Assembly: GCF_016026235.1 (NCBI RefSeq)
Contig: NZ_CP065613.1
DNA: 64,000 nt
Reading direction: 5' to 3' (one strand)
Source: Escherichia coli
GTDB lineage: Bacteria; Pseudomonadota; Gammaproteobacteria; Enterobacterales; Enterobacteriaceae
In this document: positions 41,601-47,600 of the stretch, piece by piece
How positions within the stretch are numbered: the stretch's first letter is position 1
How the letters are laid out: the number at the start of each line of letters is the position of its first letter
Position numbers: made by a program

Positions 41601-44600
41601 TTTTTTCATCCCTGAAATTTTGCTCAATTTGCATTCTACGGCTGTATAATTTCATTACCTGTTTTGGCGAGAACTCAGTACTGTTTGTGAAAATAAACCA
41701 TGGTGATTTCCCGGCAGTACGAGCTTTAGCCGTCACCGATGGTCTGGTTGCTCTTTCCTTCGAGCGTTTAAATCTACGACCTTTAGGCTTACTTTTATAA
41801 AGATAAAAATGCCCTTCATGTTGTGCATTTTTATCTCGACCCAGCAGGCCTTCACCTAAATAAATTGCTGTCGTTGATGCTTTTGTGCCTGAGTCCGACA
41901 CCTTTTCCCAGCCATTACCAACATTGTAATAATGATTGCCCAGTACCCGGCAAATATAGGTCCAGCCACGGGAGCGGAGCTGTTGGAACCATCGCCCCTG
42001 AAAACCGGCATCTGTAATAACAATGACATCAGTCCCGGGGGAAAAGCACTCAGCAAGCGATTCCAGAAAACGCTCATGTACATCTGCATTCGCTGTCTGT
42101 GATGATGGAACGACACAACTCATCAACGGTAAAGAACGCCCGTCACATGCCAGGCTTGCCCGCAAAAGCTGAAAACGAGAGGCATGATAAGCACTCCAGT
42201 CAATGAGTATCACAACACGAGACATTCCCCGCGTAATCTTTTGGGTAATTCGCTGAAAAATGGTGGAAACCTCATTTTGCAAATGTCGATTCCCCAACAG
42301 TCGATCCACCCGCTTTATTTTGTTTTTAACTGATGCCGTACCGGTTAAATGACGCCCGATACTGGTAAGTGTGAGGGAAGCGCCATTTATTACAGCATTA
42401 GTTGCGTCAATCAGTGATTTTTGACGGTAAAGATGCAAAGGGGCCAGTATATTGTTAAGGAAATTTTGGCATAATGAACGTGCAGGCATAGTGGTGATCT
42501 CCTTGAAATTGTTAGCACAATCAATTAGATCACATCTCACTATGCCTGTCTTGTTTTCTGGGGATTCCTCAGAGGATTTCTCCGGGGTTTGCATTGATTA
42601 GTTGATTTAAATCAGATTAATCCAGCCATTCGGTATGGAACACACCTTCTTTATCAATGCGCTTATAAGTATGTGCACCGAAATAGTCACGCTGTGCCTG
42701 GATCAGGTTCGCAGGAAGAACAGCGGCGCGGTAGCTGTCATAATAGGCAACCGCAGCGGCGAAGGTCGGAACCGGGATACCGTTCTGTACCGCATAAGCG
42801 ACGACATCGCGCAGCGCCTGCTGGTAGTCATCGGCAATTTGCTTGAAATACGGAGCCAGCAGCAGGTTAGCGATCTGCGGATTTTCGGCATAAGCATCGG
42901 TGATTTTCTGCAGGAACTGCGCACGGATAATGCAGCCAGCACGGAAAATCTTCGCGATTTCGCCATAGTTCAGATCCCAGTTGTACTCTTCAGACGCAGC
43001 ACGCAACTGAGAGAAGCCCTGGGCGTAAGAAACGATTTTGCCCAGATACAGAGCACGACGAACTTTTTCGATGAACTCAGCCTTGTCGCCTGCTGGCTGC
43101 GCTTGCGGACCAGACAGTACTTTGGACGCGGCAACACGCTGCTCTTTCAGAGAAGAGATGTATCGTGCAAACACAGACTCGGTAATGAGCGACAGCGGTT
43201 CACCGAGATCTAGCGCGCTTTGGCTGGTCCATTTACCGGTACCTTTGTTAGCCGCTTCATCCAGAATCACATCAACCAGGTAGTTACCGTCTTCATCTTT
43301 TTTAGTGAAGATGTCTTTGGTGATGTCGATCAGGTAGCTGCTTAGTTCACCATTATTCCACTCGGTAAAGGTCTGCGCCAGTTCATCGTTGGTGAGGTTC
43401 AGGCCACCTTTAAGCAGAGAATAGGCTTCAGCAATCAGCTGCATATCTCCGTATTCAATACCGTTGTGAACCATCTTCACATAGTGACCTGCGCCATCGG
43501 CACCAATATAGGTAACACATGGCTCCCCATCTTCAGCCACTGCGGCGATTTTGGTCAGGATCGGTGCGACCAGTTCATAGGCTTCTTTCTGGCCACCAGG
43601 CATGATGGAAGGTCCTTTCAGCGCACCTTCTTCGCCACCAGAAACACCGCTACCGATAAAGTTAAAGCCTTCTGCAGACAGCTCACGGTTACGACGAATG
43701 GTGTCCAGGAAGAAAGTGTTACCACCATCAATGATGATGTCACCTTTATCGAGGTATGGCTTGAGAGAATCAATAGCAGCATCCGTGCCTGCACCTGCTT
43801 TCACCATTAACAGGATGCGACGAGGCGTTTCCAGAGATTCAACAAACTCTTTTATTGTATAGTAAGGAAATAACTTCTTATCCGAATGAGTAGCTATAAT
43901 TTTTTCTGTTTTTTCACGAGAACGGTTAAAAATTGAAACAGTATAGCCGTGACTTTCGATATTTAGTGCAAGATTACGCCCCATTACCGCCATACCGATA
44001 ACCCCAATCTGTTTTTTTGACATTTTCACTCCTATTTAATTAGCAGAATAATAAACGTATTGAAACACATATAAAAATATGTCATATGGAAAATATTGCA
44101 TTAAGACAAACAACAGATAATTGTATATGTAATTAAACTTATATTAAATTAATTACAGAAAATACTCAAAACTAACGTTGCTCTCCACACTCTAGTTTCC
44201 AGTGTCTCAGACTAACTATTATTAATAGTCTCCGCGATATATAAGAGATTTAACTGCCATGCCTCAAATATATCTTTCAACTCACTTACATTTTATAAAT
44301 TACAATAATCGAGAGTCAAATTATCAACCTCAAAATAATTTTGACAAACAACGAGGCTGTTGGTGTTTCCAGAATACTCAAATTGGTTCTATTCGTCATA
44401 TGTACTAAAACCTTAAAGCCAATGAAATATATCTTATCACAGTCATCTAATAACCATATGATAGCCACCAATGAATTTAGAAAAAATAAAACTTAAGACT
44501 GTTCCTGACTCTGAAATTTTATACAGCACAAATAATGCAATGAACTATTCTATACTTTTAAGTAAAATAAAGACAATCTTTATCATAATACTAAGTTCAT

Positions 44601-47600
44601 TCGCACCAATTAACCTCAGAATTCATTTCAATGATAACTAAAGGCTTTATAAAAATAATTCTTCAGGAGAGGCACTTGGTAAACATAATTTTACTAAATA
44701 GATTGCAGATTATAATCTGATACAAAAACATTAATCACACTTCTTGTCCACACAGACCCACATTTCCCTATTCTATTGAAATTCACTTAAAACTCATCCA
44801 TGACATCATCAAATATAAAAATACATTTGCAAATCAAAAGCATTATCCAATATTTCTTTATAAGATTTGCCGAATTATCTCCAAGAGGCAAAGTGGCGCT
44901 TAAAAAACAAACACAGCGGATTTATATGATGTTTGGCAACAGCATTAACAGCATAGTGGGAGAAATAATAAAGAGATTTAAACAGACCAAACTTTAAATA
45001 TTTCCTGTAAAAGGCCCATTGTGAAAATATTATTTTTAATTTATTTGACGAGAGTGTATCGGTGCCTACTCGATAATAGGCCAGTGTTTCGTTCAAACAA
45101 TATGCATAATCAATTTTATCTAAAATGCTCAGCCATAGTGCCATGTCCTGTCTTTTCCTGATTGTTGGCATAAACATTTTACCAAGAGATGAAGTATCAT
45201 ATACAGCTGTCAAGCAACCTATTACATTAGTCTTTAATAATTCAGAATAATTAACTTTAGAAACAGGATTAATTTGGGATAAAAGTTTCCCGCTAAAACT
45301 AACCTTTTGATATGAGGTATAAGTGAAAGCATAATTATTTGAAAGCATAAAGTCTATCTGTTTTTTTATTTTCTCTTTATGCCAAAAATCATCACTATCT
45401 AAAAAAGCGATAAACCGACCTTTAGCTTTACTGATCGCTATATTTCTTGACATACCAGCCCCATAATTCTTCTCATTTGAAATGAGAACAACTCTTGAAT
45501 CTTTTTTTTGATATTCCCTGCAAATAGACACTGTATTATCTGACGAACAATCATCGACAATAATCATTTCTATATTATTATATGATTGAGATAGAACAGA
45601 ATCAATTGTACATCTAATCGTTCTTTCAGAATTATATGTGGGTGTTATGACTGAAACTAAATATTTATCGGTACTCATAGAATCATCTCAAACTTACATA
45701 AGTTTCATTATATAATGTCATGTTTATCATATCCATCCTTGGTAGCTTATTAAGAAATTTCACATATTAAATATTTATCAAGTATTTCATTAACATCCCA
45801 CCTTAATATAAAAAGCCGTTAATTAAGAGAGTAACTACAAAGCAAAGCAAAGCAAAGCAAAGCAAAGCAAAGCAAAGCAAAGCAAAGCAAAGCAAAGCAA
45901 AGCAAAGCAAAGCAAAGCAAAGCAAAGCAAAGCAAAGATGGTTTTATAAAAATATTGACAGTGAATAAAATAGCACATTAAAATCGTCTTATTTATATCC
46001 TTTGGGATTGTTTTTTTGCCAACGCCAAGAATCAATTATCATTGTATCTAAATCATATCGAGAAGACCACCCTAATTCTAAAAATGCTAGAGATGGATCA
46101 GACCAACATTCAGCTATATCACCAACTCGACGAGGTTTGAAACAATAAGGGATATCAATTCCAGTACAACGTTTAAAGGTATTTATCACATCAAGAACTG
46201 AATAACCAACCCCTGTACCAAGATTATATACTTTATAATTTCCCCCAAAATTACGGTGTTCTAAAGCAGCTATGTGCCCTTCAGCCAAATCCATAACATG
46301 AATATAATCTCTAATGCCTGTTCCATCAGGTGTAGGATAATCATTTCCGAATACTGATAAATATTTTAGATTACCAATAGCCACTTGAGTAATATAAGGA
46401 ATTAAATTATTTGGAACACCATTAGGATCTTCGCCTAATAGACCAGAAGAGTGGGCTCCTACAGGATTGAAATAACGCAAAATAGTAATACGCATTGTTG
46501 GCTCAGCCAAAGCTATATCCTTCAAAACCCTCTCTACTATAAGTTTTGAAAAGCCATATGGATTAGTTGTTCCGCCAACGCTACTATCTTCCTTCAAAGG
46601 AATAGTTTCAGGCTTACCATACACTGTTGCGGAGGAGCTAAAAATAAAACTAATAACGCCAGCGCGCATCATTTCTTCAAGTAAAACAATAGTTCCGTTA
46701 ACATTGTGATCATAATATTCCAATGGATTTGAAACAGATTCAGCGACGGCTTTTAATCCTGCAAAATGAATAACATCTGTAATATCATGATACTGGAAAA
46801 TATGTTTGAGTTTTTTCCTATCACGCACATCACCATGATAAAATAGAGGCCTACGTCCACAAATTTTTTCGACCCTTTCTAACGACTTAGACGATGAGTT
46901 CGATAGATTATCCAACACCACCACATTTTTTCCGTATGATAATAAGGATAATACAGTATGTGAACCAATGTAACCTGCACCACCAGTAACCAAAATAGTC
47001 ATAAAACTCCTTATATTTCATCTATCTGCCTAGGATATAAAACAAGAATATAAACACATTATAAATAGTATAAACTGTGAAAGAATAAAAATTTAGAATA
47101 GTTAAGCCCAATGTTACTATAAAAATACAATATGCAAGTATACGTTATTTTTCTAAACATCTCGACATATTGTATGAGTCTAACACTATATTGCATTTTT
47201 TTCGTGTAAATTATGTTCTAGTGGTGTCAGTAATTCGAGCAATTTATGAGGCCTTTTATTCTTGTACAGTATGCAATATTGAGCCTGTTTATGATTGACA
47301 TATTCAGATTTTCAAAGAGCAATTCTTCATTAAACTCAATAAACGGCTATCTCAGTGATCGGTTAAAGCGCTCACAGATGGTGTTCATTTTCGGCGTATC
47401 GAGATAAGCCTATTGGTGCCTGATAGCGGCTTCCTGTAGCTTTTTGTCAAATTTTCCCAGGAACTCTTCCCCATAATCGGGTATATTCTGGTTGATTCCA
47501 ACAGGTAACAACCGAGCTTGATGGCAGAAGAAACTCATGATTACATCACTGTTAAGCGACGTTACCGCCACCGCCAAAGCGTAGTTGCTGCGTTCGTCAA

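Follow-up and report, generated by a model that had tools for sequence, protein, structure and literature searches.

What occupies the long, AT-rich interval that separates the last gene of an O-antigen cluster from the central-metabolism gene gnd in one Escherichia coli genome, and how did it come to lie there? The question is raised by a stretch of 64,000 nucleotides (contig NZ_CP065613.1 of assembly GCF_016026235.1; hereafter the window, meaning this stretch at its full length), in which galF, the O143-specific genes, an insertion sequence (IS) remnant, galE, a family-2 glycosyltransferase (GT2) gene, the gap, gnd and ugd follow one another. The cluster is that of E. coli O143; its wzx and wzy genes are annotated as members of the O143 families in the matching genomes. 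The first-pass annotation had described the gap as unusually long and without a credible open reading frame (ORF), and had suggested a decayed gene or an earlier recombination junction. The gap is real and its coordinates are exact, the start codon ATG of gnd occupying 44023-44021 and the stop codon TAA of GT2 44877-44875, both on the minus strand; the 851 bp between them have a guanine-plus-cytosine (GC) content of 28.1%, compared with 31% in the O-antigen cluster and 46% in the whole window, and the composition is even along the gap (27-32% in 300-bp windows). The gap and the gene at its upstream end are:

44875-45678, minus strand: last gene of the cluster, encoding the GT2 glycosyltransferase of 267 amino acids, by annotation and homology
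44024-44874, no strand assigned: AT-rich non-coding spacer from the GT2 stop codon to the gnd start codon, by coordinates and composition; without similarity to any protein, RNA, IS, plasmid or phage; found in O143-type loci only

The length of the gap is exceptional among the genomes sampled. In 13 other E. coli genomes, chosen to represent the spread of gnd alleles, gnd begins 87, 96, 105, 110, 113, 116, 127, 137, 158, 171, 175, 200 and 366 bp after the last gene annotated upstream of it (median 127 bp), the largest value being that of a gap ending at IS1; with 851 bp the O143 gap is 2.3 times as long as this largest value and 4-10 times as long as the other twelve, which bears out the earlier description.

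The gap is probably a horizontally acquired non-coding spacer that entered as one block with the O143 genes and the 5' end of gnd. It is most likely inert foreign DNA that at most supplies expression signals for gnd, and on sequence evidence it appears to contain neither a gene nor a structured RNA. The arrangement appears to be an ordinary by-product of O-antigen cluster exchange, in which a known class of non-coding anomaly is combined with a mosaic gnd. Non-coding regions are a recognised anomaly of O-antigen clusters, with 14 cases in 178 serogroups, and are taken to reflect genetic events in the recent past (PMC7685785; Liu et al., FEMS Microbiol Rev 2020); PMC4732683 contains nothing specific on O143. 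Like these anomalies, the O143 gap is long, geneless and situated inside the galF-gnd locus, and its cluster likewise contains the remnant of a mobile element and a surplus glycosyltransferase that is unexplained, O143 possessing one more than its structure requires (PMC7685785); unlike them, the gap is additionally contiguous with a foreign 5' end of gnd.

The divergence switch in gnd and the donor search

Evidence for import comes from gnd itself. When gnd was compared with 13 other E. coli alleles in 100-nucleotide (nt) windows, its first 200 nt were 72-82% identical to every allele, with a GC content of 32-39%; from nt 201 onward, the identity to the best allele rose to 94-100%. The alignment with the closest allele, that of strain EC11 (locus L005), has 42 mismatches in nt 1-171 (24.6%), none in nt 172-308, and 50 in the 1236 nt from 172 to 1407 (Fisher's exact p = 6e-17 against nt 1-171). 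Base composition differs between the same two parts, with 34.5% GC in nt 1-171 and 50.6% in the rest of the gene. The segments concerned are:

43853-44023, minus strand: foreign 5' segment of gnd, nt 1-171, codons 1-57, by its divergence (24.6%) and its GC content
43715-43853, no strand assigned: interval holding the gnd breakpoint, with the divergence switch at 43852/43853; nt 172-308 have zero mismatches right after the divergent nt 1-171

Since the divergence switch is inside gnd, the gap is interior to the imported block and is not the junction itself; the earlier suggestion of a recombination junction was correct in that a junction exists, but it was misplaced in the gap. The block imported would have comprised the O143-specific genes, the spacer, the ribosome-binding site of gnd and the first 171 bases of gnd, and the right-hand crossover would have occurred within gnd at approximately 43852/43853. 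The right-hand boundary of the O143 import is thereby placed 171 bases into gnd, which is of use where strains are typed by the sequence of gnd or of the O-antigen cluster, and in tracing the origin of enteroinvasive-associated O143; the spacer itself has little importance beyond bookkeeping, and gives no hint of an unknown gene or RNA.

Mosaic gnd alleles, produced through co-transfer with the adjacent O-antigen (rfb) cluster, are said to have been described by Nelson & Selander in 1994 and by Tarr et al. in 2000. Like such mosaics, the O143 gnd switches abruptly from a divergent segment of foreign composition to typical E. coli sequence, beside a serogroup-specific cluster; unlike them, its foreign part is very short (171 nt), has a GC content of only 34.5%, and has no donor that could be found among 100,044 species-representative genomes. 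The foreign 67 N-terminal residues of this Gnd share 75-84% protein identity with the best 80 loci in this genome collection; at the DNA level, the foreign 5' end is at most 79% identical to any gnd compared (those of E. coli and of the best 80 loci), and ordinary E. coli gnd is as close to it as any other locus. A protein homologue search with the Gnd N-terminus returned only short fragments of at most 86% identity, which are uninformative. No spacer-like sequence was present among approximately 95 gnd-upstream regions, and exact-pattern scans of the 100,044 species genomes and of JGI metagenomes (two patterns from the spacer, one from the gnd 5' end) gave no match, a diverged donor being invisible to scans of this kind.

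Within E. coli, the 851 bp were found in four of 5426 complete genomes, at 99.8-99.9% identity and always between gnd and GT2, and a sensitive blastn search of E. coli genomes produced no spacer match beyond O143-type loci. All known copies of the spacer are at least 99.6% identical and confined to O143-type loci in constant context, with a single copy per genome, and the searches brought up no diverged homologue; the NCBI annotation leaves the gap featureless in all four complete O143-type genomes. Nine copies vary at three sites (3.5 per kb), in line with 3.0-5.0 per kb in the flanking gnd, GT2 and galE genes; three sites are too few to tell constraint from neutrality.

The gnd leader and its expression signals

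The usual E. coli leader of gnd has also been replaced. The sequence CCTGACAGGAGTA precedes the gnd ATG in 11 of 12 other aligned E. coli, an O75 strain differing in the first bases; in O143, the sequence upstream of gnd is AATTAAATAGGAGTGAAAATG, and both the CCTGACAGGAGTA motif and a GCCGCG...CGCGGT hairpin are absent. This hairpin is common to most other E. coli alleles, approximately 25-50 nt upstream of gnd (loci L005-L016), and is missing from the O143 and O75 alleles; beyond the conserved upstream part of approximately 45 nt, the sequence is serogroup-specific. The O143 spacer resembles the standard (K-12) gnd upstream region in its position, in its AGGAG ribosome-binding site and in its sigma-70-like hexamers; it differs from this standard in having neither the hairpin nor CCTGACAGGAGTA, and in extending over 851 bp instead of approximately 100-200 bp. 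The candidate signals are:

44029-44033, minus strand: gnd ribosome-binding site AGGAG, 5 nt upstream of the ATG; its context differs from that in other E. coli, by sequence and alignment
44048-44075, minus strand: sigma-70-like pair TTTATA-16-TATTAT, the candidate promoter nearest gnd, by consensus match only (9/12)
44290-44347, minus strand: promoter-like sites TTGTCA-16-GATAAT and TTGACT-18-TAAAAT facing gnd, by consensus (10/12 each)

The predicted promoter-like candidates that face gnd are located at 44075-44048, 44147-44120, 44319-44290 and 44347-44320. Promoter-like matches numbered 20 in 2.2 kb, against 13.0 +/- 3.6 in shuffled sequence, and they are frequent in AT-rich DNA. No intrinsic terminator, nor any terminator-like hairpin, was predicted anywhere in the 851 bp, so that read-through from the O-antigen operon is possible. 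Because the native leader has been replaced, transcription of gnd would have to start from promoter-like sequence in the AT-rich spacer or arrive by read-through from the operon; the spacer may supply the promoter or the 5' untranslated region of gnd, and would otherwise be functionless. Either way, gnd in O143 strains would be expressed from a non-native upstream region.

It is highly unlikely that the AT-rich block acts beyond this as a functional foreign regulatory module with a silencing or insulating role, for example by being bound by AT-preferring nucleoid proteins. If it did, gnd would be uncoupled from read-through of the O-antigen operon and would possess a promoter and leader of non-E. 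coli type, and O143 strains would regulate this central-metabolism gene unlike other E. coli.

Coding, RNA and mobile-element content of the spacer

The absence of a credible ORF, as noted in the first-pass annotation, was confirmed: the longest ORFs have 56, 51, 51 and 49 amino acids, and stop codons are not depleted in any frame (18-30 per frame, where 21.6-24.7 are expected from base composition). For Pfam and word-indexed protein searches, the six frames were joined with stops masked; the six-frame Pfam scan revealed no family above noise and no transposase domain, and a word-indexed collection of 5.8 billion proteins gave no match to the gap frames at E<=10. An exhaustive HMMER scan of all stop-free gap segments of at least 16 amino acids against 1.84 billion cluster representatives returned two matches only, both of them ORFs called on the same sequence in other O143 assemblies; these ORFs, of 49 and 56 amino acids, occur only in the gnd-gap-GT2-galE context. 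Tblastn of the gap found nothing, whether the queries came from the cluster's own proteins or from the five genes located behind the closest GT2 homologue of Edwardsiella tarda. A codon-usage score, for which the cluster's genes served as the training set, is mostly at or below 0 in the gap and reaches a maximum of 9.6, whereas it lies mostly at 8-24 in the GT2 gene. The two ORFs, and a natural deletion that affects one of them, are:

44259-44408, plus strand: 49-amino-acid ORF (P0241), antisense to the cluster, judged spurious; without a Shine-Dalgarno sequence, its relatives being identical copies at the same locus
44471-44641, plus strand: 56-amino-acid ORF (P0242), judged spurious; found at the same locus only, its 3' half lost in the deletion of strain 200177
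44545-44767, no strand assigned: segment of 223 bp that E. coli strain 200177 lacks, between 9-bp direct repeats CTATTCTAT

The direct repeats CTATTCTAT are located at 44545-44553 and 44768-44776 and bound the deletion in strain 200177 exactly; the deletion is of the slippage or microhomology type. Provided that the assembly of strain 200177 is correct, at least a quarter of the spacer, and with it half of the 56-amino-acid ORF, is dispensable in a natural isolate.

These results give no support to the earlier suggestion of a decayed gene, the three protein searches and tblastn being negative, the stop codons at chance frequency and the coding potential low. An eroded protein-coding gene, for example a gene that once closed the donor's polysaccharide cluster and has since decayed past recognition, is an unlikely origin of the gap. 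It would fit a length of 851 bp, which is that of a typical gene, a weak mid-gap rise of the codon score on the minus strand (up to 9.6), and the abnormal C-terminal tail of GT2 (see below), which suggests rearrangement at the 3' end of this gene; moreover, gene remnants are a recorded anomaly of O-antigen clusters, with nine cases (PMC7685785), and the genomes sampled here include remnants adjacent to gnd, namely, in a K-12-type strain, a fragment of wbbL and, in strain 132, an ISAs1 remnant close to gnd. Yet the gap shows no homology in any frame to Pfam families, to the 5.8 billion proteins or to the 1.84 billion HMMER representatives, it has no frame depleted in stops, it bears no likeness to the genes following the closest GT2 homologue or to genes of its own cluster, and its codon-score peaks are lower than the score along most of the true GT2 gene. 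With the remnants that adjoin gnd in other serogroups (wbbL::IS5 of K-12-type strains; ISAs1 in strain 132, where perB is the last cluster gene) the O143 spacer has in common that extra DNA separates gnd from the last functional O-antigen gene; unlike these remnants, which have recognisable homology and belong to multi-copy elements, the O143 spacer has neither property.

A short functional gene or a small RNA (sRNA), the finding that according to the first-pass annotation would count against its view of the gap, was looked for with Rfam, tRNA, terminator, folding and HMMER analyses, and none was found. At a permissive threshold, the best Rfam match was a eukaryotic snoRNA model with E = 0.69, far under its gathering score; the gap contains no tRNA or tmRNA; and folding z-scores, computed on both strands for 42 windows of 120 nt that overlap, lie between -2.3 and +1.75, the level of chance. 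That the gap encodes a small functional product, whether one of the ORFs of 49-56 amino acids or a lineage-specific sRNA, is extremely unlikely. Gene finders called the two plus-strand ORFs in several assemblies, and AT-rich intergenic islands often carry promoters; but neither ORF has relatives outside its own locus or a Shine-Dalgarno sequence, the longer one is cut short by the natural 223-bp deletion, Rfam matches, terminators and unusually stable folds are lacking, and the NCBI pipeline annotates nothing at this position in the four complete genomes.

Mobile-element origins were considered as well. Plasmid and phage nucleotide searches yielded no match to the spacer. Inverted-repeat pairs with both arms inside the gap were not found; two imperfect pairs touch it (15 and 18 nt), their second arms lying in distant AT-rich DNA. 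The single copy, the constant locus, the missing terminal inverted repeats and the missing transposase homology speak against a remnant of an insertion sequence or of a miniature inverted-repeat transposable element (MITE).

The preferred interpretation, a non-coding spacer imported in one block with the O143 genes and the gnd 5' end, has several points to its disadvantage. Conservation among copies that are at least 99.6% identical does not part constraint from recent common descent; the promoters are consensus matches only, in AT-rich DNA where such matches abound; no donor sequence was found, and import as one block is argued from composition and divergence; finally, computation may miss a gene eroded past recognition, a small protein confined to this lineage, or a lineage-specific sRNA that lacks a canonical terminator.

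The glycosyltransferase end of the gap and neighbouring features

At the upstream end of the gap, the GT2 protein extends beyond its relatives. The closest GT2 relatives outside E. coli are 70% identical, in Edwardsiella tarda. Nine GT2 homologues stop 0-13 residues past a conserved K-H motif, whereas the O143 protein continues for 17 residues (HINPLCLFFKRHFASWR); the homologues cover 88-96% of the query, and the best NCBIfam model covers GT2 residues 1-249 only. The feature in question is:

44878-44928, minus strand: C-terminal tail of GT2, residues 251-267, past the conserved region of the family, and a possible second junction, by homologue ends and NCBIfam

The tail is suggestive of a second, older junction at approximately 44928, where the native stop codon of GT2 may have been replaced; this interpretation is tempered by the variable C-terminal length within the GT2 family and by the uniform GC content of the gap. 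In an extended form, the gap itself would hold a junction and would be a patchwork, with a gnd-proximal part and a GT2-proximal part (or the GT2 tail only) from separate donors; this is possible but doubtful. It is consistent with a GT2 that runs 13-17 residues past the ends of its homologues, as a replaced stop codon would predict, with the IS remnant between galE and wzy, which shows that the cluster was assembled stepwise, and with the surplus glycosyltransferase of O143 (PMC7685785). However, GC remains at 27-32% throughout the gap, no partial match to another locus marks a boundary within it, divergence maps a single junction only, and this one is inside gnd, and the C-terminal lengths of the GT2 family vary somewhat in any case.

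The IS remnant itself occupies a stretch of approximately 1.7 kb without an intact ORF between galE and wzy (about 47100-48700), which related genomes annotate as a frameshifted "integrase core domain" pseudogene and which splits the cluster. This stretch is a hint that the cluster may have received galE, GT2, the spacer and the 5' end of gnd in an event of their own.

A perfect microsatellite, (CAAAG)20 on the plus strand (CTTTG on the coding strand), is located at 45838-45937 between galE (45989-47002, minus strand) and GT2, 51 nt after the galE stop codon and 159 nt before the GT2 start codon. Repeats as long as this are rare in E. coli. In seven assemblies the copy number is 14, 16, 19, 20, 21, 23 and 25, different in every genome examined, and two of these assemblies match the window exactly, apart from the repeat, along the 4.4 kb between gnd and galE. 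The repeat could be a switch for phase-variable or level-variable expression; it stands upstream of the last glycosyltransferase in a cluster with one glycosyltransferase too many (PMC7685785).

The wzy ORF (48753-50015; 420 amino acids) is intact in the window and is annotated as frameshifted in all four complete O143-type genomes. Between 47003 and 50015, strains D10, 200177 and STLEFF_47 differ from the window by substitutions only, with no indel, and strain 2017.15.02CC has one single-base gap at approximately 48584, in the galE-wzy intergenic region and outside the wzy ORF. Relative to the window, the ORF is free of indels in the four genomes compared; the "frameshifted" label is probably an annotation artefact and not a real wzy defect.

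On the far side of gnd, the ugd-gnd intergenic region of the window contains an ISEc60-like insertion that is absent from the four complete O143-type genomes, where this gap measures 248 bp. Its IS4-family transposase gene (41299-42594, minus strand; 431 amino acids) matches the NCBIfam model transpos_IS4_2 with E = 1e-107 and is 99% identical to ISEc60; among the best matches to ISEc60 are several human isolates in which it occurs in multiple copies. A gene for an NAD-dependent epimerase (38828-39832, plus strand) lies between ugd and wzz, on the strand opposite to its neighbours and beside a short annotated gene fragment. All four complete O143-type genomes examined have this epimerase gene; although located outside the galF-gnd cluster, it might nevertheless provide a sugar precursor for the O unit.

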